UHGV virus genome: UHGV-0331195
Reading direction: 5' to 3' (one strand)
Length of the DNA stretch: 11,597 bases
Source of the DNA: a virus
The notes below the pieces were generated by a model, which saw nothing but the letters and a program-made list of their open reading frames with translations, was not told the origin of the DNA and did not search any database. Shown piece after piece: positions 63-9,806 of this stretch. A program made the translations under genes and the position numbers. Numbering within the stretch: the first letter of the stretch is position 1; each line of letters opens with the position of its first letter.

Positions 63-139
63 CGGCACGTAGCGCAGCCTGGTAGCGCACCGTCATGGGG
101 TGTCGGGGGTCGGAGGTTCAAATCCTCTCGTGCCGACCA
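63..139 (+). tRNA. proL: tRNA-Pro, anticodon GGG
   Basis: 77-nt cloverleaf: acceptor stem CGGCACG/CGTGCCG, D-arm GCGC-AGCCTGGTA-GCGC, anticodon loop ATGGGGT (GGG), T-arm GGAGG-TTCAAAT-CCTCT, 3' CCA encoded. Matches my recollection of enterobacterial proL. Confidence 0.9.
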
Positions 140-316: not shown

Positions 317-347
317 ACCCTGTTTTTTCGTGTGGAATCATAGACAT

Positions 348-1589
348 ATGGCGAGAAAAACACACCCATTAACCACAGTGCAGATCAAAGCAGCCAGACC
401 AGCGCAAAAGGAGTACACCCTGCAGGACGGCGGAGGGCTTTTTCTCCTGGTCAAACCGTCTGGATCAAAACTCTGGAGATTTTCCTACTACCGACCATCG
501 GACAAAAAAAGAATATTGCTGAGTTTTGGATCGCTTGAAGATGTTTCCCTGGCTGATGCCAGAAAACGCCGTAGCGAGTACAGGACGTTAATCAGTGCCG
601 GAACTGACCCGCAGGACCACGAGAGGCAAAAAAGAGAGACAGAGGCCCGAAGACAAGGGAACACGTTCGAAAATGTGGCGGCGGCATGGTACCAGGTGAA
701 AATCAGCCAGAATCTGGCCCCCAACACGATTAAAGACATCTGGCGTTCGCTGGATAAATATGTATTCCCGTTCATCGGCAACACGCCAATAGATACCCTC
801 ACCGCCCGAAGGTTCGTTGAAGTGCTTACCCCCATCAAGGAGCGCGGCAACCTGGAAACACTCAAGCGGGTTTTACAGCGCGTTAATGAGGTAATGGATT
901 ACGCCGCCAACAGTGGGCTGATTGATGCCAATCCGGCTATGAATGTGCGTAAGGCGTTTCCCTCACCTGTAAAAAAACATATGCCAACAATCCGCCCCGA
1001 ACAGCTGCCGGAGCTTATGCAGGCTTTATCAGTATCGGCAACAGAACGGCAGACCAGATTACTGATTGAATGGCAGTTACTGACCGTAACCCGTCCCGCC
1101 GAAGCGTCATCAACGCGGTGGGATGAAATCAACCTGGACGCGAAGCAATGGACGATACCTGCCGGACGCATGAAGATGCGCAGGGATCACGTTATCCCGC
1201 TTTCCGGTCAGGCTATGGCGGTGCTGGAGGCCATGAAACCAATCAGCCACCACCGCAATTACGTTTTCCCAAGTCTGAAAGACCCACAGCAGCCGATGAA
1301 CAGCCAGACAGCTAACGCAGCATTGCGGCGTATGGGATTCGCTGGCGTGCTGGTGTCTCATGGATTACGCGCCATATTCAGCACAGCAGCGAACGAGGAA
1401 GGATTCGAGCCGGACGTAATAGAGGCGGCACTTGCCCACGTCGACACCAACGAAGTTAGACGGGCATACAACCGGAGCAACTATATAGAAAAACGCATCG
1501 TGCTGATGCGCTGGTGGGGCGAATTTGTCGAGGCTGCGGCGACGGGCGTAACCCTCGCCAGTGGTAAAAGGGGTATCCGAGCCGTGTAG
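348..1589 (+). CDS. int: Tyrosine-type site-specific integrase, P4/CP4-57 family
   Basis: ORF 330-1589; start chosen at ATG 348 (MARKTHPLT...). N-terminus (PLTTVQIKAARP...YTLQDGGGLFLLVKPSGSKLWRFSYY) matches the arm-binding domain signature I recall for P4-type integrases; C-terminus has HGLR and RAYNRSNY catalytic-region motifs. Adjacent to a tRNA. Confidence 0.85.
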   Translation: MARKTHPLTTVQIKAARPAQKEYTLQDGGGLFLLVKPSGSKLWRFSYYRPSDKKRILLSFGSLEDVSLADARKRRSEYRTLISAGTDPQDHERQKRETEARRQGNTFENVAAAWYQVKISQNLAPNTIKDIWRSLDKYVFPFIGNTPIDTLTARRFVEVLTPIKERGNLETLKRVLQRVNEVMDYAANSGLIDANPAMNVRKAFPSPVKKHMPTIRPEQLPELMQALSVSATERQTRLLIEWQLLTVTRPAEASSTRWDEINLDAKQWTIPAGRMKMRRDHVIPLSGQAMAVLEAMKPISHHRNYVFPSLKDPQQPMNSQTANAALRRMGFAGVLVSHGLRAIFSTAANEEGFEPDVIEAALAHVDTNEVRRAYNRSNYIEKRIVLMRWWGEFVEAAATGVTLASGKRGIRAV

Positions 1590-2292: not shown

Positions 2293-2318
2293 CGGGTATC
2301 ACAGATATGACAAACACG

Positions 2319-2352
2319 AAAAAAGCGGCCCCGATATGGAGCCGCCTTTCTG
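2319..2352. terminator. Bidirectional hairpin GCGGC-ccccgatatgga-GCCGC; terminator for the minus-strand RHH transcript (T-run on minus strand)
   Basis: On the minus strand the hairpin is followed by TTTTTT; on the plus strand it follows alpA with only a weak T-tract. Confidence 0.5.
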
Positions 2353-2440
2353 AACAATTAACCCGCTGCGCCTTATGTGTATGTGATCCCAAACATAAGC
2401 ACGGGGATGATAGCCGCTATCAGGCTGGTGGGCAATGCAA

Positions 2441-2629
2441 TCAGTCTGGTTCAGTTCGTTGCCATACCTGCAATGAGCGCTTTTCCCTGTACTCTTTAAG
2501 GAATTGCTCAAGGGCAAAAGCACATGGTGCGAATCTTTCTGATTCATGCTCTATCTTTCTGCGCCGTCTTTTCCGTGCCGGTGATAATGTTTTGGTCAAT
2601 TCTTTATCGGTCATTGTGTTGTCCTGCAT
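2441..2629 (-). CDS. Small basic hypothetical protein, second gene of the RHH transcript
   Basis: 62-aa ORF (or 57 aa from ATG 2614) between the RHH gene and the minus-strand terminator; contains RKRRRRK. No clear RBS. Confidence 0.3.
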   Translation of the reverse strand: MQDNTMTDKELTKTLSPARKRRRRKIEHESERFAPCAFALEQFLKEYREKRSLQVWQRTEPD

Positions 2630-2671
2630 AGCAATGCGCCGTAATACCTCACACCACGGCGCTGATAGTGA

Positions 2672-2851
2672 TTATTCTGATTCTTTGGCCTTGCGGCGCT
2701 GGCGGCGTTTGATCTCGCCTTCAAGTGCCGAAACGATAAATTGCCCTGTACTTTCGCCATCTTCCTTTAAATTTTCTACAGCATCAGCTATTGCGTGTGG
2801 TACTCGAGCCTCAAGCTTTTTGGATTTTGCATTAACTGCTTTTGTTGCCAT
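2672..2851 (-). CDS. Ribbon-helix-helix (Arc/CopG/MetJ-type) DNA-binding protein, candidate island repressor
   Basis: 59 aa from ATG 2851 with RBS GAGGAAA 7 nt upstream on the minus strand. MATKAVNAKSKKLEARVPHAIADAVENLKEDGESTGQFIVSALEGEI matches the RHH beta-strand plus two-helix pattern. Divergent from the replication operon, with operator repeats between. Confidence 0.65.
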   Translation of the reverse strand: MATKAVNAKSKKLEARVPHAIADAVENLKEDGESTGQFIVSALEGEIKRRQRRKAKESE

Positions 2852-2872
2852 ATCTGATTTCCTCGTTATTAG

Positions 2873-2952
2873 GTGGCTGACAGTATACACACAAGAAAAC
2901 GGAAAAACACTATTGACGTGGCTGACACCCGTTACTAATATAGTGGCTGACA
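2873..2952. promoter_or_regulatory. Divergent promoter/operator: three direct GTGGCTGACA repeats (2873-2882, 2918-2927, 2943-2952) over a rightward promoter TTGACG (2913-2918), 17 nt, TAATAT (2936-2941)
   Basis: Three exact 10-mers within 80 bp; the middle copy lies in the spacer of a near-consensus sigma70 promoter facing the Icd-like/primase operon. A possible leftward promoter (TTGTGT...TAATAA on the minus strand) overlaps the first repeat. Confidence 0.55.
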
Positions 2953-3045
2953 CCTTTATTAAGGTAATCGATGAAAAGACAAAGCCCCGCAAGTGTCGTT
3001 ACCACTCGCAGGGCTTCTAACCAACAACGTAAACTAGGAGCCGTT

Positions 3046-3603
3046 ATGGTTGCTGTAAATCATATACCACACCTTGTACACACACAAACGGCCTTTGTGT
3101 GGCGTTTTCTGGCCCTGAATATCGGAGAAAAAAACCGCTTGATCGCCACCAGCAAAAATGGCTATGATTCCCGCGCACCTCATAAAACGGGTGTCGGGAT
3201 TAGCCTCCTGAAAACAACTGAAGCGCACAGCACGCGCCCCGCGTGTTTTTTTGTGCCGCATAGTCACACCTTATCAATGGTGGGCTGTACGGGGGCGGAG
3301 CAATCCGCGCCGGTTTCTTCAGTGTCCGGTAAGGCTAACCCTGTACAGTCCGCCACCAGCGAAATTAGCCTTTTGCGTGGCGGTTATCTTAACCACACTG
3401 AGGAGGCTGCCAACATGGCTACTATCCCTACCCTTGTACATTCTCAAACCGCATTTATCTGGCGCTTTATCATCTTTGGCGCGTCAGAATCTCAAATCAT
3501 CCACGTAACCGCCTGGACGGAACGCGAAGCGCGTAGCCGTTGCCCGTCCGGTTGTATTGCGGTATTCGCCGCCCGTATTCGTCAGGGGGTGTGCCATGCC
3601 TGA
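3046..3603 (+). CDS. Icd-like (host cell-division inhibitor family) ORF with in-frame tandem duplication; start uncertain (2971, 3046 or 3415)
   Basis: Single frame 2971-3603 with no stop. AGGAG RBS before ATG 3046. N-terminal motif LVHTQTAFVWRF recurs as LVHSQTAFIWRF at the second copy; degenerate TEAHSTRPAC versus TEREARSRCP. Confidence 0.4.
   Translation: MVAVNHIPHLVHTQTAFVWRFLALNIGEKNRLIATSKNGYDSRAPHKTGVGISLLKTTEAHSTRPACFFVPHSHTLSMVGCTGAEQSAPVSSVSGKANPVQSATSEISLLRGGYLNHTEEAANMATIPTLVHSQTAFIWRFIIFGASESQIIHVTAWTEREARSRCPSGCIAVFAARIRQGVCHA
3415..3603 (+). CDS. Icd-like protein, second and better conserved copy, 62 aa
   Basis: Strong SD GAGGAGG (3400-3406) before ATG 3415. MATIPTLVHSQTAFIWRFIIFGAS...TEREARSRCP...FAARIRQGVCHA fits my recollection of Icd-like small proteins in P4-like/PICI elements. 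Confidence 0.5.
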   Translation: MATIPTLVHSQTAFIWRFIIFGASESQIIHVTAWTEREARSRCPSGCIAVFAARIRQGVCHA

Positions 3604-3922: not shown

Positions 3923-4222
3923 ATGAGAACGTATTTATCTGGCTTTACTGCCAGCGGCCCCGCTCGGCCTGAAATCCGCCCCGGAGATATTTTCAGAGAT
4001 AACTACGGTGGCGTTGTTGAGATTAAAGGCGTGGCAGAACGGCGCATTACCTACCGCCGTGAAGGCTACGAATATGATTGCGTGATGCCTGTTTATCAGT
4101 TCCGGCGTGATTTTTCTCTGGTACAGGCAGCGCCCCGCAGTAAACCAACCAGCAGGGAGAAAGCACGCGCCAATATTCAGGAAATAAGAAAGATGTTGAA
4201 TGTATTCAGGGGTAAAAAATGA
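3923..4222 (+). CDS. Small protein, possible DUF4222 family
   Basis: 99 aa; PGDIFRDNYGGVVEIKGVAERRITYRREGYEYDC resembles the DUF4222 pattern I recall from P4-like prophages. Stop overlaps the primase start (ATGA). Confidence 0.45.
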   Translation: MRTYLSGFTASGPARPEIRPGDIFRDNYGGVVEIKGVAERRITYRREGYEYDCVMPVYQFRRDFSLVQAAPRSKPTSREKARANIQEIRKMLNVFRGKK

Positions 4223-5967
4223 AACTGGCACCGAACGTAAAAAAACAGCCACGCGGAATAAAACACAAAGACACAGAGGTAATTATCTTTGCGGGTAGTG
4301 ATGCCTGGTCACACGCGGAACAATGGCAGGAGCAGGATGGCCCCGCATCCGGCGATAATGTGCCGCCTGTGTGGCTTGGGCCAAATCAGCTTGCCGAACT
4401 TGATGCACTGAAAATTGTTCCGGATGGAAAAAAACGCGTAAGGCTGTACCAGGCCGGAGAACTGGATTTGGTGGAGACCAAAAAGATTGGTCAGAAGCTG
4501 GCGGCGGCAGATATTCAGGACGCAAATTTTTACCCCGAAGGAATGCACGTCCAGAAGTGTGAAAACTGGCGGCGCTATCTGAATGCTGAGCGTGAAAATA
4601 TTGCCGCAGGGCTTACCATGCCGGAGCAGAAAAATACGCAACTGGCACAAATGGCAGACAGTGAGCGCGCGCAGCTGCTTGCCGAGCGCTTTGATGGCGT
4701 TTGTGTACATCCGGAAAGTGAAATCGTTCACGTATGGCGCGGCGGGGTATGGTGTCCGATCAGCACAATGGAGCTGAGCCGCGAAATGGTGGCGATCTAT
4801 TCAGAGCACAGGGCCACTTTCAGCAAACGCGTGATCAATAACGCCGTTGAAGCGTTAAAAGTTATTGCCGAACCAATGGGGGAGCCGTCCGGCGATTTGC
4901 TGCCGTTCGCCAATGGTGCGCTTGACCTGAAAACGGGGGAATTTTCCCCGCACACGCCGGAGAACTGGATCACCACGCACAACGGCATTGAGTACACGCC
5001 ACCAGCACCTGGGGAGAACATCCGCGATAACGCGCCAAACTTTCATAAATGGCTTGATCACGCAGCCGGAAAAGACCAGCGCAAGATGATGCGTATATGT
5101 GCCGCGCTGTACATGATTATGGCGAACCGGTACGACTGGCAGATGTTTATTGAGGCCACCGGAGACGGCGGGAGCGGTAAAAGTACATTCACACACATCG
5201 CCAGCCTTCTGGCAGGGAAACAGAACACGGTAAGCGCTGAAATGACATCGCTTGATGATGCTGGTGGACGTGCGCAGGTTGTCGGGAGTCGTCTTATCGT
5301 CCTGGCTGACCAGACGAAATATACAGGCGAAGGAACGGGCATCAAGAAAATCACGGGCGGCGACCCCGTGGAAATTAACCCGAAATACGAAAAGCGTTTC
5401 ACGGCTGTAATCAGGGCGGTGGTGCTGGCGACCAACAATAACCCGATGATATTCACCGAACGGGCCGGAGGTGTGGCACGTCGTCGCGTGATTTTCCGCT
5501 TCGACAATATCGTCAGTGAGGCCGAAAAAGACAGGGAGCTACCGGAAAAGATTGCGGCTGAAATCCCTGTCATTATCCGCCGATTGCTGGCGAACTTTAC
5601 CGACCCTGAGAAGGCACGGGCTTTACTACTGGAACAGCGTGACGGTGATGAAGCACTGGCAATAAAGCAACAGACGGATCCGGTTATTGAGTTTTGCCAG
5701 TTCCTGAATTTTCTGGAGGAAGCGCGCGGCCTGATGATGGGTGGCGGTGGCGATTCAGTGAAGTACACGACCAGAAACAGCCTTTACCGCGTCTATCTGG
5801 CGTTTATGGCATACGCAGGCAGGAGCAAACCGCTAAACGTAAATGACTTTGGCAAGGCTATGAAGCCAGCCGCGAAAGTTTACGGACATGAATATATTAC
5901 GCGGAAAGTTAAGGGAGTAACGCAGACTAACGCAATAACAACAGACGATTGCGACGCGTTTTTATAA
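4219..5967 (+). CDS. Replication protein: P4-alpha-like primase / SF3 helicase
   Basis: 582 aa; Walker A GDGGSGKST (aa 315-323, nt 5161-5187) and Walker B-like RLIVLAD, consistent with the phage/plasmid primase P4-family C-terminal domain. Followed by an iteron origin. Confidence 0.75.
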   Translation: MKLAPNVKKQPRGIKHKDTEVIIFAGSDAWSHAEQWQEQDGPASGDNVPPVWLGPNQLAELDALKIVPDGKKRVRLYQAGELDLVETKKIGQKLAAADIQDANFYPEGMHVQKCENWRRYLNAERENIAAGLTMPEQKNTQLAQMADSERAQLLAERFDGVCVHPESEIVHVWRGGVWCPISTMELSREMVAIYSEHRATFSKRVINNAVEALKVIAEPMGEPSGDLLPFANGALDLKTGEFSPHTPENWITTHNGIEYTPPAPGENIRDNAPNFHKWLDHAAGKDQRKMMRICAALYMIMANRYDWQMFIEATGDGGSGKSTFTHIASLLAGKQNTVSAEMTSLDDAGGRAQVVGSRLIVLADQTKYTGEGTGIKKITGGDPVEINPKYEKRFTAVIRAVVLATNNNPMIFTERAGGVARRRVIFRFDNIVSEAEKDRELPEKIAAEIPVIIRRLLANFTDPEKARALLLEQRDGDEALAIKQQTDPVIEFCQFLNFLEEARGLMMGGGGDSVKYTTRNSLYRVYLAFMAYAGRSKPLNVNDFGKAMKPAAKVYGHEYITRKVKGVTQTNAITTDDCDAFL

Positions 5968-6255: not shown

Positions 6256-6519
6256 ATGCGCACATCAGGAAAACTTAATAATCAGAAGAAGCAGCATAAC
6301 CGCGCCATTGACCTTACAGAGCACTGGCTGAGAGTGGCGATAAAAATCATCGACCGCAACACGGGGGAAGGATACGCGAAAGCACATCCCGAACTGATAA
6401 GCGCATTCATGACCACGGCGGCGGCAAACTTTGCCACGCTGACAGAACGGGAGATTGCCGAAGCGGAACAGGTAACAACCATCAACGTAAAAACCGGAGA
6501 GTCAGGCGATGATACATGA
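6256..6519 (+). CDS. Hypothetical protein, 87 aa
   Basis: ORF with GAGGGGG upstream; stop overlaps the next gene's start. Confidence 0.45.
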   Translation: MRTSGKLNNQKKQHNRAIDLTEHWLRVAIKIIDRNTGEGYAKAHPELISAFMTTAAANFATLTEREIAEAEQVTTINVKTGESGDDT

Positions 6520-6781
6520 CCGCATAGCGGAGGAACTCGAGGCGAAAGGATTTTACCGGAGGGCGGCGGCGCGATGGGGTGAAGTCATGCAGCTGGTGGA
6601 GACAGACAAGGAACGGCATCAGGTTACGATGCGACGGCTGGAATGTTCCAGGAAGGCACAGAGGCCACCGGAGCCGCCGGATAACTTCGGAGACCTGAGA
6701 AAGGCAGTCGATCGCACTTATGCTGAAATGGGTATAGATGGTGTAAGCGATGAAATATGGCGTAATTACCCAGGCAGCTAA
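6509..6781 (+). CDS. PerC-like transcriptional regulator (tentative)
   Basis: 90 aa; N-terminus IAEELEAKGFYRRAAARWGEVM resembles the PerC-family signature as I recall it. Translationally coupled to the upstream ORF. Confidence 0.45.
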   Translation: MIHDRIAEELEAKGFYRRAAARWGEVMQLVETDKERHQVTMRRLECSRKAQRPPEPPDNFGDLRKAVDRTYAEMGIDGVSDEIWRNYPGS

Positions 6782-7021: not shown

Positions 7022-7228
7022 ATGGCTGAAGAGAAAAAAGGCGGTGTTTCGGTGTACATAAGCCCCGACATCGTGAAGGCGCTCAAGGAACGCCACCAGC
7101 AGAACGTAAAAGCAGGCATTGCGGCAGGACTTGATCCGCTGGCGATGGTTGAGCCGTCAACAGGCTGGCAGGTACGCGCCTATTTACGCGCGGCGCTGGG
7201 TATGAATCAGGTTCACGGGGGTGAATAA
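7022..7228 (+). CDS. Small hypothetical protein, first gene of head operon
   Basis: 68 aa, RBS AAGAGGAA, stop overlaps the capsid gene start (TAATG). No similarity to lambda gpW, which has the same length, that I can see. Confidence 0.5.
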   Translation: MAEEKKGGVSVYISPDIVKALKERHQQNVKAGIAAGLDPLAMVEPSTGWQVRAYLRAALGMNQVHGGE

Positions 7229-8283
7229 TGACAGTAAAAGCAATAGCACTTAACACTAACCAGCTTTTTGCGTACCTGAATCGCGAGGATATTGCGGAAT
7301 TTAAATTCAGTCCGCTGTTTACCGCGCTGTTTTTCCCGAACGTGGCGACATTCAACACACAGGACATCATGTTAGATAACCTGGATATTGAAGAAGTCAC
7401 TATGTCGGCGTTTTGTTCGCCTATGGTGGGTAGCCAGGTTCAGCGCGATAAAGGGTACGAAACAAGCATTATTCGCCCTGGCTACACGAAGCCAAAACAC
7501 GAAATCGATCCATTAAAAACAATAATGCGCATGGCTGGAGAAGATCCAGCACAGCTTAACGACCCTACCTACCGCCGTATGCGCCTGATTACTGGCAACA
7601 TGCGCCGCCAGATAAACGCCATTAAAGCGCGCGTGGAATGGCTGGCGGTAAATGCGGTAACGACCGGAAAAAACATCATTGAGGGCGAAGGCATAGAGCG
7701 CTATGAAATCGACTGGAAGATACCGGAAAAAAACATCATAGAGCAGGCCGACGGTAAAAAATGGTCAGAGCAGGACAAAGACATACACGACCCAATCTAT
7801 GACATTGAGCTATACGCAGATCAGGCAGGTTGCCCCGCAAACGTCATGATTATGGGCGTTGATGTATGGCGCATGTTACGCAGCTTTAAAAAATTCCGTG
7901 AACTGTACGATCTCTCCCGTGGTTCAGAATCCGCCGCAGAGCTGGCATGTAAAAACCTGGGCGAAGTGGTGAGCTTTAAAGGCTATCTTGGTGATCTGGC
8001 CCTTATCGTCTATTCCGGCAAATACACTGACAGCGACGGCACAGAAAAATATTTCCTTGAGCCTGATTTGCTGGTCCTGGGCAACACCAACAATAAAGGG
8101 CTGGTGGCCTATGGTGCGATTATGGAACAGGAAGCGGTAAGAACGGGCGCAACGCAAAACATGTTTTACCCGAAAAACTGGATTGAGGACGGCGATCCGG
8201 CGATTGAGTACGTGCAGACGCACAGCGCACCGCAGCCGGTTCCGGCAGATATTCGCAAATTTGTTACCGTCAAAATTGGTTAA
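7228..8283 (+). CDS. Major capsid protein, phage lambda gpE family (divergent)
   Basis: 351 aa. Shares with recalled lambda gpE: FKF(S/D)PLF...LFF, (T/R)PGY(V/T)KPKHE, EDP..L.DP.YRR.R.I..NMR, WS..DK...DP..DIE.YA, RSFK, RGS.S, LG..VS(F/Y)KG..GD.A.(I/V)VYSG.Y, LVLGNT...GL..YG, .YPKNW...GDPA.E, SAP. Estimated 35-45% identity. Confidence 0.85.
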   Translation: MTVKAIALNTNQLFAYLNREDIAEFKFSPLFTALFFPNVATFNTQDIMLDNLDIEEVTMSAFCSPMVGSQVQRDKGYETSIIRPGYTKPKHEIDPLKTIMRMAGEDPAQLNDPTYRRMRLITGNMRRQINAIKARVEWLAVNAVTTGKNIIEGEGIERYEIDWKIPEKNIIEQADGKKWSEQDKDIHDPIYDIELYADQAGCPANVMIMGVDVWRMLRSFKKFRELYDLSRGSESAAELACKNLGEVVSFKGYLGDLALIVYSGKYTDSDGTEKYFLEPDLLVLGNTNNKGLVAYGAIMEQEAVRTGATQNMFYPKNWIEDGDPAIEYVQTHSAPQPVPADIRKFVTVKIG

Positions 8284-8295
8284 CGGGGGGATTCT

Positions 8296-8631
8296 ATGGA
8301 CACTCCATACATTGAGTTATTTGCAGGCAGTCAGCAGGTATCCACGACGCTGGTACATTTTGCCGCTGATGCTGGCGTTATTCAGGAATTTACCCCGCTG
8401 ATGCTGGCGGACAATGGCGAGTTTAAGCCGTGGGATGGTCAGGAATCTGGCAAGGCTGTTTATCTGACTTCGTACCCCGTGGACACGTCAAAGCAGAAAT
8501 CAGCACAGTGTTACAAGACGGGGATATTTAATATCGCCGCCGTAAACTGGCCTGAGAGCGCCGACACTGACGCGAAAAAATGCGCCGCCTTTGCGGGTTC
8601 TGGCGTATCCGTTCAGCCGCTGGCGCGATAA
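8296..8631 (+). CDS. Head decoration protein, lambda gpD family (divergent)
   Basis: 111 aa; TPLMLADNGEFKPWDG...YKTGIFN...VNWPESADTDAKKCAAFAG...SV parallels recalled gpD (TPLMLD...WDG...YKSGTF...VLWPEA..DETKKRTAFAG...SI). Gene order E then D is the reverse of lambda. Confidence 0.7.
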   Translation: MDTPYIELFAGSQQVSTTLVHFAADAGVIQEFTPLMLADNGEFKPWDGQESGKAVYLTSYPVDTSKQKSAQCYKTGIFNIAAVNWPESADTDAKKCAAFAGSGVSVQPLAR

Positions 8632-8643
8632 GCAGGGGAAACG

Positions 8644-9057
8644 ATGGCAACGAATGAAAGCATCATGGCGCTACCGCTGGCGAGTAAATTTAAAGCAGAA
8701 GCGCGGGCAATGGCTGACAGAGGTTTATCAACCTACGAGGCCGTATATCAACTCAACAAACTGGAAGAACAGGACAAGCCGCGCGCTGATGCGATTATGG
8801 CGCTTCATGAACATAACGACTATCAGCCGCTGTTACGTGCAATGGCAAACGTGCCATGTATTAGCGTCGATAATGCTCGTGAAATCCTGAACATGACCAT
8901 AGAGCAGGAGCGCCCAAAGGTTGCACCAGAGCTTACCGCAGCCTTTGAAAACTTTATGGACATGCACAGCCCGCAAGCCGTATCAGCTGGCATGGCGTAC
9001 GATGGCAGAAACCAGGGCGATGACGGCGACATCGATCGCATACTGAAAACCATCTGA
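8644..9057 (+). CDS. Hypothetical head-module protein, 137 aa, acidic C-terminus
   Basis: RBS GGGGA 5 nt upstream. No convincing similarity to lambda FI/FII/W from memory. Confidence 0.5.
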   Translation: MATNESIMALPLASKFKAEARAMADRGLSTYEAVYQLNKLEEQDKPRADAIMALHEHNDYQPLLRAMANVPCISVDNAREILNMTIEQERPKVAPELTAAFENFMDMHSPQAVSAGMAYDGRNQGDDGDIDRILKTI

Positions 9058-9263: not shown

Positions 9264-9806
9264 ATGAAATCTCATCTGATGAACAAAAAAAACATGGCGA
9301 AAAGCTGCCGTGTAAGTGCGACAGCGTTCGACAAGTGGGGAGTAACTCCCGTTGAGCGTAAAGGCCGTGAGGCGTTTTATGATGTTGCCAGCGTGATAGA
9401 AAATAGGGTTAACAATGCAATTAGCCAGCTTATAAACGACAAAGGCGAGATTGACGATGATGAACTTTTACGAGTCAGGATCAGATTACTGACAGCACAG
9501 GCAGAGGCGCAGGAACTTAAAAACGATCGCGATCGCGGTGACGTGATTGATACTGAGTTTTGCCTGTACGCGCTTTCAAAGCTGGCGAGTCAGATTTCAT
9601 CAATCATGGACAGCCTCCCGCTTACTATGCAAAGGAGCTTCCCACAGATTACCCCCGCCATGCTGGATAGGCTTAAAAGGGAAGTGGTTAAAGCCTGTAA
9701 TGCCAGTGCCAGAGTTGCCGACAACCTCCCACAGATACTGGCTGATTACTTGAAAGAAACAACCGGAAACGTACCGGAAAAGTTGCTACAGAAGAAAGGC
9801 GAGTAA
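9264..9806 (+). CDS. Terminase small subunit, lambda gpNu1 family; start uncertain (9264, 9279 or 9294)
   Basis: C-terminal two-thirds LLTAQAEAQELKNDRDRGDVIDTEFCLYALSKLASQISSIMDSLPLTMQRSFPQI...LDRLKREVVKACN closely parallels recalled Nu1 (LTRAQADAQELKNARDSAEVVETAFCTFVLSRIAGEIASILDGLPLSVQRRFPEL...FLKRDIIKAMN). N-terminal DNA-binding region is much more divergent. Confidence 0.8.
   Translation: MKSHLMNKKNMAKSCRVSATAFDKWGVTPVERKGREAFYDVASVIENRVNNAISQLINDKGEIDDDELLRVRIRLLTAQAEAQELKNDRDRGDVIDTEFCLYALSKLASQISSIMDSLPLTMQRSFPQITPAMLDRLKREVVKACNASARVADNLPQILADYLKETTGNVPEKLLQKKGE

Follow-up and report, generated by a model that had tools for sequence, protein, structure and literature searches.

The DNA stretch considered here, UHGV virus genome UHGV-0331195 (11,597 nucleotides (nt); hereafter, the window), was 99.9% identical to an island located beside tRNA-Pro in Escherichia coli NCTC9112, and the element is a phage satellite of the phage-inducible chromosomal island (PICI) type, integrated at tRNA-Pro. 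Within it, positions 2971-3603 form an open reading frame (ORF) of 210 codons without a stop, in which sequence related to icd is found twice. An earlier description made from the letters alone (the sequence-only reading) interpreted this ORF as an in-frame tandem duplication of an Icd-like gene with a degenerate first copy, and pointed to a run of seven T residues (T7) inside that copy as a potential slippage or phase-variation point. However, the first copy is a 5' fragment of icd and the second an intact icd, and the 285 nt that separate them (3130-3414) consist of a promoter match and two Rfam RNA genes, one encoding an IsrK/SeqA-like RNA that ends in an intrinsic terminator, the other a C4/CI-type antisense RNA (Table 1).

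Two 12-residue motifs, LVHTQTAFVWRF at 3073-3108 and LVHSQTAFIWRF at 3433-3468, are placed in the same frame at a spacing of 360 nt, and rest on a 46-nt direct DNA repeat with 74% identity. The single stop-free frame with two Icd-like motifs had been correctly recognized before, as had the Shine-Dalgarno sequence of each copy (AGGAG at 3036-3040 ahead of ATG 3046, and GAGGAGG at 3400-3406 ahead of ATG 3415). The long frame likely starts at ATG 3046 and not at ATG 2971, since the latter overlaps the 3' end of an upstream gene in another frame, which ends at 3020; the start called by the Prokaryotic Genome Annotation Pipeline (PGAP) is also 3046. The resulting ORF matched phrog_29966 over its full length (380 bits). 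When both halves were compared with the Icd-like profile NCBIfam NF033153, the second copy scored 58-61 bits against a cut-off of 25 (58.3 bits for 3415-3603, covering profile positions 1-48 of 48), whereas the first copy (3046-3399) gave no match at E values up to 1, and Pfam searches of it were also without an Icd match. PGAP divides the same interval in three: 3046-3130 is called an Icd-like fragment, 3139-3384 an 'ash family' pseudogene and 3415-3603 an Icd-like gene of 62 amino acids (aa).

Two further observations concern the intact icd and what follows it. The next ORF (106 aa, phrog_15327) begins at ATG 3596, overlapping the icd stop codon (TGA, 3601-3603); this suggests translational coupling of the kind reported for orf45 and anrP in Gifsy-1 (PMC4825925). 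In E. coli S19-651 (L004, positions 1807-2455), a 62-aa Icd-like gene is directly followed by a second Icd-annotated protein of 155 aa.

Table 1. Features of the icd control region, followed by landmark genes of the island. Positions are those of the window.
Feature	Position	Strand	Basis or remark
Upstream sigma-70-like promoter (candidate)	2913-2941	+	TTGACG, 17 nt, TAATAT; consensus match
GTGGCTGACA repeats, three exact copies	2873-2882, 2918-2927, 2943-2952	.	Repeat scan and promoter positions
Shine-Dalgarno AGGAG and ATG 3046, probable start of the long eta-like ORF	3036-3048	+	PGAP start
First copy, 28-codon 5' fragment of icd	3046-3129	+	DNA homology, ends at 3129/3130
Long ORF, 185 codons, probable P4 eta counterpart	3046-3603	+	Extends into icd, in its frame, across the internal promoter, the two RNA genes and the C4 targets
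Internal sigma-70-like promoter	3139-3168	+	TTGATC, 18 nt, TATGAT; consensus match; ends 7 nt before the IsrK model start
IsrK / P4 SeqA-like leader RNA	3175-3251	+	Rfam RF01394, 61.8 bits (gathering score 50), model positions 1-77
C4 / P4 CI-type antisense RNA	3273-3360	+	Rfam RF01695, 75.4 bits (gathering score 45)
Downstream C4 targets (predicted)	a2 3365-3372, b2 3395-3403	+	b2 extends into GAGGAGG (3400-3406), the icd Shine-Dalgarno
Intact icd, P1 Icd / P4 Kil homologue, 62 aa	3415-3603	+	NCBIfam NF033153; PGAP WP_244420467
tRNA-Pro	63-136		
Integrase	330-1589		
D5-type primase	4219-5967		
PerC	6509-6781		
Lambda-type major capsid protein E	7228-8283		
Head decoration protein D	8296-8631		
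Nu1-like small terminase	9264-9806		

Both hexamers of the internal promoter are conserved among relatives, in which the ORF translates them as 'LIA' and 'GYD'. The IsrK-like RNA holds two sites, a1 (3200-3206) and b1 (3216-3223), and ends in a predicted intrinsic terminator composed of a hairpin (3229-3247) and the T7 run (3246-3252), which was terminator-like in a consensus scan. In the C4 RNA, two segments are predicted to be exposed: b' (3317-3325) in a hairpin loop and a' (3331-3338) in a linker. Pairing and covariation were evaluated in an alignment of 18 sequences from E. coli islands, IMG/VR loci, a Stx2 phage (L006) and a P1-like phage (L005), with slid partners as controls. The Rfam structures of both RNAs were paired in 95.8% of cases, with double changes at 10 of 45 pairs and a covariation of 0.265, compared to 0.077 for the best slid control; when partners were slid, at most 50% remained paired. 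The C4 helices were 98.8-100% paired, and one of them was compensated at all five of its pairs. Judging from these substitutions, the two RNAs are under selection as RNAs. The stretch regarded earlier as a degenerate part of the first Icd copy is, in fact, occupied by the IsrK-like and C4 RNA genes, and its substitutions track base-pairing and not codons.

The C4 RNA is also connected by covariation with sites outside itself. Among six E. coli islands, clustered differences were confined to three places that change together, namely the IsrK loop, the C4 linker and a site just past C4. These read TTAGCCT, AAGGCTAA and TTAGCCTT, respectively, in the window type, and TTGGCGT, TACGCCAA and TTGGCGTT in the type represented by L011 and L013. 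A second covarying trio comprised the C4 hairpin loop, an IsrK site and a site overlapping the icd Shine-Dalgarno sequence. The naming of such target sites as a and b reportedly goes back to Citron and Schuster in 1990. In the 18-sequence alignment, at least six specificity types were set by the three-way covarying a and b sites, with members that include L011, L015, L017, L018, L030, L034, L035 and L037, as well as the Stx2 phage and the P1-like phage. Between the IsrK sites and C4, 98.4% of cells were paired, 11 of 15 pairs had changed on both sides and covariation reached 0.779 (0.17 or less with slid partners); the corresponding values for C4 and the downstream sites were 93.4%, 12 of 17 and 0.762 (0.154 or less when slid). 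The alignment shows that the two segments of C4 predicted to be exposed have four complementary sites, two within IsrK and two immediately before icd; the final one covers the icd ribosome-binding site, and all of these pairings co-vary. In the long ORF, these pairing-site substitutions change the amino acids non-conservatively (for example, from ISLLKT to IGVLGK).

Duplex predictions were in line with this pattern. The exposed part of C4 paired with the downstream target at -34.1 kcal/mol, a value reached by none of 300 shuffles, and with IsrK at -29.1 kcal/mol, for which 13 of 300 shuffles were as good. For the first-copy ribosome-binding site, the duplex with exposed C4 was predicted at -17.7 kcal/mol and 64 of 300 shuffles did as well, which is not significant. 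Control of the first-copy start by C4 was also considered and rejected, as this duplex is no better than those of shuffles and the site is identical in islands that have no C4.

The first copy could be traced to a different type of island. A single complete icd (65-66 aa) without RNA cassette was found in E. coli ESDR8 (L008), O157:H7 (L009), strain 104 (L010) and approximately 45 IMG/VR loci, and positions 3046-3129 of the window were 95-99% identical to the 5' end of this gene in L008, L009 and the IMG/VR loci. Homology to L008 extended over window positions 2601-3129 at 99% identity and ended at 3129/3130, while positions 3432-3598 were 86% identical to the same icd. Since both copies match the L008 gene, the repeat reflects homology and not chance: Icd-derived sequence does occur twice in one frame, as had been proposed, but the first copy is Icd-like for 28 codons only. 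Further, the difference between 99% and 86% identity argues for recombinational juxtaposition and not for a recent duplication in place; the presumed tandem copies belong to different lineages, share only 74% identity over 46 nt and are separated by the foreign 285-nt cassette. Single-icd PICIs such as those of E. coli ESDR8 and O157:H7 ECP19-198 resemble the window in their order of integrase, AlpA-like regulator, icd, DUF4222 and primase, and are 95-99% identical up to icd codon 28. This contrasts with the absence from these islands of the RNA cassette and of a second icd start, their icd continuing uninterrupted. By this DNA homology, one icd lineage contributed the upstream region, the Shine-Dalgarno sequence and the initial 28 codons that form the first copy, and these abut a cassette that has brought a diverged icd of its own. 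On this reading, it is a recombination remnant supplying the start of an eta-like frame and not a second Icd protein.

Relatives differ in how much of icd heads the long frame. Predicted ORFs of this kind fall into 231 protein clusters, annotated as Ash or Icd-like, and begin with approximately 44 Icd-like residues, with 28 (as in the window), with approximately 24, or with an 18-residue head without the Icd motif. In some relatives, the head of approximately 44 residues scored on the Icd profile as a second matched stretch. All head types meet the cassette at one point, KN(Q/R/L)LIA (KNxLIA), which corresponds to the -35 hexamer, and a good Shine-Dalgarno sequence with ATG is retained at the head of the frame in every variant, including those without Icd-like residues. 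Among 32 unique IMG/VR cassette loci, an Icd-like head was present in 13 and absent from 17, and the long frame was lost in the remaining two. A scan of genome contigs with Icd contributed no more than two loci. As a separate observation, a hairpin formed by CACACAAACGGCCTTTGTGTG and followed by GCGTTTTCTG at 3081-3101, within the first-copy coding sequence, received a terminator-like score; the segment that holds it is 95-99% identical in single-icd islands.

The closest known arrangement is the immunity region of phage P4, which comprises PLE, seqA, the cI RNA, seqC and the nested eta/kil genes. According to the summary of a published account (PMC10111431), a constitutive P4 promoter inside eta gives rise to a transcript that is terminated via interaction of CI with seqA and from which CI is processed; Kil corresponds to a truncated Eta, the complete Eta is translated solely from an upstream late promoter, and translation of Eta prevents termination. 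Like P4, the window has a promoter, an IsrK/SeqA-like RNA with a T7 terminator and a C4/CI RNA, followed by a Shine-Dalgarno sequence of the form AGGAGGCTGCCAxCATGGCTAC, an Icd-like gene and then replication genes; in both, a long ORF in the kil/icd frame begins upstream of the internal promoter and spans both RNAs. In P4 itself, Rfam placed isrK at 8692-8615 and C4 at 8507-8420 on the minus strand, the sole promoter-like site of the region ends 7 nt before the isrK match, and an open frame of 214 codons (8168-8812, minus strand) spans both RNAs and ends in the 65-aa Kil, which scored 76 bits on the Icd-like profile. The suggestion in the sequence-only reading that two overlapping products might be made was a reasonable one in this respect, as it amounts to the eta/kil arrangement already known from P4. 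The two loci differ in the gap between IsrK and C4 (107 nt in P4, 21 nt here) and in the head of the long ORF: in P4, the ORF start overlaps the orf88 stop (ATGA), while here the head is a fragment from the 5' end of icd that brings a separate Shine-Dalgarno sequence. Identity between the long ORF and P4 Eta is only 28% at the protein level and, unlike in P4, the upstream promoter is accompanied here by a ylcI cassette and the GTGGCTGACA repeats.

The immI region of P1 and P7 offers a second parallel. The P1 operon has the order c4, icd, ant, and is repressed by c4 (PMC8198154). As in the window, a C4-family RNA is located directly upstream of icd with short complementary segments on either side of it, the last segment covers the icd ribosome-binding site, and a few covarying bases set specificity. 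In P1 and P7, however, icd is followed by an antirepressor, while here replication genes follow. The P1-like phage L005 aligned across the whole cassette, but its locus gave no IsrK match at the gathering score, and its open stretch in the icd frame begins inside C4, without a long ORF initiated upstream. The isrK and C4 families also occur in the same order before P4 kil and in a Stx2 phage. That one cassette family is common to PICIs, Shiga toxin (Stx)-converting phages and P1-like phages implies exchange between these classes of element.

A third relative is the isrK-orf45-anrP locus of the Salmonella prophage Gifsy-1, where IsrK is a structural homologue of P4 SeqA, and a processed C4-like RNA (STnc1160) overlaps orf45, whose nucleotides are conserved and whose amino acids are not (PMC4825925). 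Both loci share an IsrK RNA with a terminator, which is leaky in Gifsy-1, followed by a C4-like RNA overlapping an ORF. They differ in that the gene downstream in Gifsy-1 is an antirepressor coupled to orf45, in place of icd, and in that IsrK acts there in trans as an activator.

In view of these likenesses, it is very probable that the locus is a small-RNA immunity switch of the P4/P1 type set before one intact icd, with the long frame as the counterpart of P4 eta and kil/icd nested at its end. The interval around icd is, with the same high probability, the early-operon control region of the PICI, laid out like the P4 immunity region and the P1 immI region. By analogy with P4 and P1, the internal promoter would fire at approximately position 3175 and yield the short IsrK-like RNA; most transcripts would end at the T7 terminator, and read-through would give C4. 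Pairing of C4 with a2 and b2 would then block translation of icd and, in so doing, shut off the 106-aa ORF, the DUF4222 gene and the D5-type primase.

A second part of this scheme is less secure. The upstream promoter, which lies between ylcI on the minus strand and the long ORF, is flanked by three copies of GTGGCTGACA, set around its -35 and -10 hexamers and its likely start site; these repeats look like operators (putative repressor sites), and the promoter is a candidate for a regulated one producing the transcripts that carry the first-copy start. Such transcripts would contain the Shine-Dalgarno sequence and ATG of the first copy, which C4 does not match. Ribosomes starting at 3046 might, as reported for P4 eta, continue across the terminator, the C4 gene and the C4 targets as far as icd; these transcripts would then be insensitive to immunity. 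We propose, tentatively and with somewhat less than even confidence, that the icd 5' fragment has been kept because it provides an initiation site that C4 cannot match, the DNA of two regulatory RNAs doubling as a translated anti-termination leader. If this is true, an N-terminally extended Icd would be made only on induction of the island, and the first-copy series (approximately 44, 28, 24 and 0 Icd-like codons at the same junction) would record the evolution of a bypass leader.

Several points weigh against translation of the long frame, and most of these also favor an alternative account: the RNA cassette works, but the first fragment is a recombination scar without function, ribosomes never use the long ORF, which is open simply because the conserved RNA sequence is poor in stops, and the 62-aa Icd is the sole product. 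Each of the two promoters is no more than a consensus match. Across the GC-rich RNA cassette, a second frame is almost stop-free as well, which makes the openness of the long frame weak evidence of translation; we therefore did not retain openness as proof, and the chance probability of approximately 0.024 from mononucleotide shuffling must be read in the knowledge that relatives are not independent samples. In L015 (cassette of 241 nt) and L017 (238 nt), length changes of 1-2 nt break the long frame while both RNAs and icd are kept, indicating that the frame is not indispensable everywhere, and in many relatives the first copy is shortened or absent. Moreover, the residues encoded over the RNA genes change non-conservatively, and in Gifsy-1 orf45, too, the amino-acid sequence varies over the conserved nucleotides of the C4 homologue; should translation of the ORF occur, nothing but the process itself and the Icd end could matter. 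Nevertheless, this account must contend with the initiation signals preserved at the frame head in all variants, with the reported role of Eta translation in preventing P4 termination and with the lengths of the cassettes: in 29 of 31 loci, these measure 239 or 242 nt with a stop-free icd frame, and the differences between cassette types are multiples of three, including the type with a run of six T residues (T6), which is offset elsewhere. Indirect support for eta-like translation comes from the same start signals and stop-free frames, and from the lack of significant C4 complementarity at the first Shine-Dalgarno sequence. A mere scar is, in our judgment, rather unlikely, although clearly the strongest competitor of the P4/P1-type switch with an eta-like frame.

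The original proposal, an in-frame Icd tandem duplication with a decayed first copy (3046-3414) and a T7 switch between a fused and a truncated protein, was largely refuted and we regard it as very unlikely. In its favor, the copies share one frame and each has its Shine-Dalgarno sequence, some relatives have the longer first copy that scores on the Icd profile and, as had been predicted, an extra T would end the first copy early, a +1 shift at the T run reaching a TAG at 3261. On the other hand, the Icd-like part here is limited to 28 codons without a profile match, the copies derive from different icd lineages, and 3175-3360 contains two RNA genes whose variation compensates pairing. The T run, located at 3246-3252 and not, as previously given, at 3247-3253, comes after a GC hairpin as the U-tract of the IsrK terminator and is no slippage point. 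Its length was T7 in the window and in six related E. coli islands (7/7), after the equivalent hairpin in P4, and in 30 of the 32 unique IMG/VR loci; the other two (L018 and L046) are T6, belong to a diverged cassette type and still keep the frame. A pattern scan allowing five T residues plus 0-5 extra bases gave T7 in 15 of 15 matches and, among 5,426 E. coli genomes, a 67-nt T7 query had 22 exact matches, while its T6 and T8 versions had none. Phase variation at the T run was consequently rejected, there being no length variation of that kind among relatives.

That 3139-3384 encodes a genuine 'Ash family' protein with only incidental RNA matches is barely credible: Pfam Phage_ASH does match ORF residues 65-158 (3163-3444; 42.8 bits), clusters with Ash or Icd-like annotations are numerous and PGAP calls an 'ash family protein' pseudogene at the locus, but the Pfam match coincides exactly with the isrK and C4 DNA, the differences among relatives fall in pairing sites, where they are compensated on the partner strand and non-conservative in amino acids, and, in all genomes inspected, PGAP itself labels the gene an incomplete pseudogene.

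A recurring annotation error is thus corrected: where hundreds of E. coli genomes are annotated with an 'Ash family protein' or an 'Icd-like pseudogene', a translated RNA immunity cassette and an icd remnant are what the entries represent. Matches to the cassette occur in roughly 1,700 E. coli genomes. The P4 and P1 paradigms explain the locus and no new mechanism is involved; a PHROG family (phrog_29966) already exists for the long ORF, and detection of CI/seqA relatives in PICIs by the Rfam C4 and isrK models is in print (PMC10111431). Antisense-RNA immunity of the P4/P1 type has a wide spread, being part of PICI satellites that carry capsid genes, of Stx phages and of P1-like phages. Of modest interest are the icd remnant heading an eta-like frame and the natural series of covarying specificity types, at least six in number, which constitute a ready set for studying how satellites and phages avoid cross-immunity.

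Upstream of the long frame, the ylcI cassette covers approximately 295 nt (2679-2973), with a divergent promoter and, on the minus strand, a gene of the YlcI/YnfO family (2672-2851). The cassette substitutes for 248 nt of the 3' part of a hypothetical gene (221-247 aa), which is uninterrupted in DETEC-S792 (L003) and O157:H7 (L009). A plus-strand ORF (2307-3020) remains open through the cassette, antisense to ylcI. Between the upstream promoter and the first-copy Shine-Dalgarno sequence, an inverted repeat with a 15-bp stem (2981-3017) received a terminator-like score on the minus strand.

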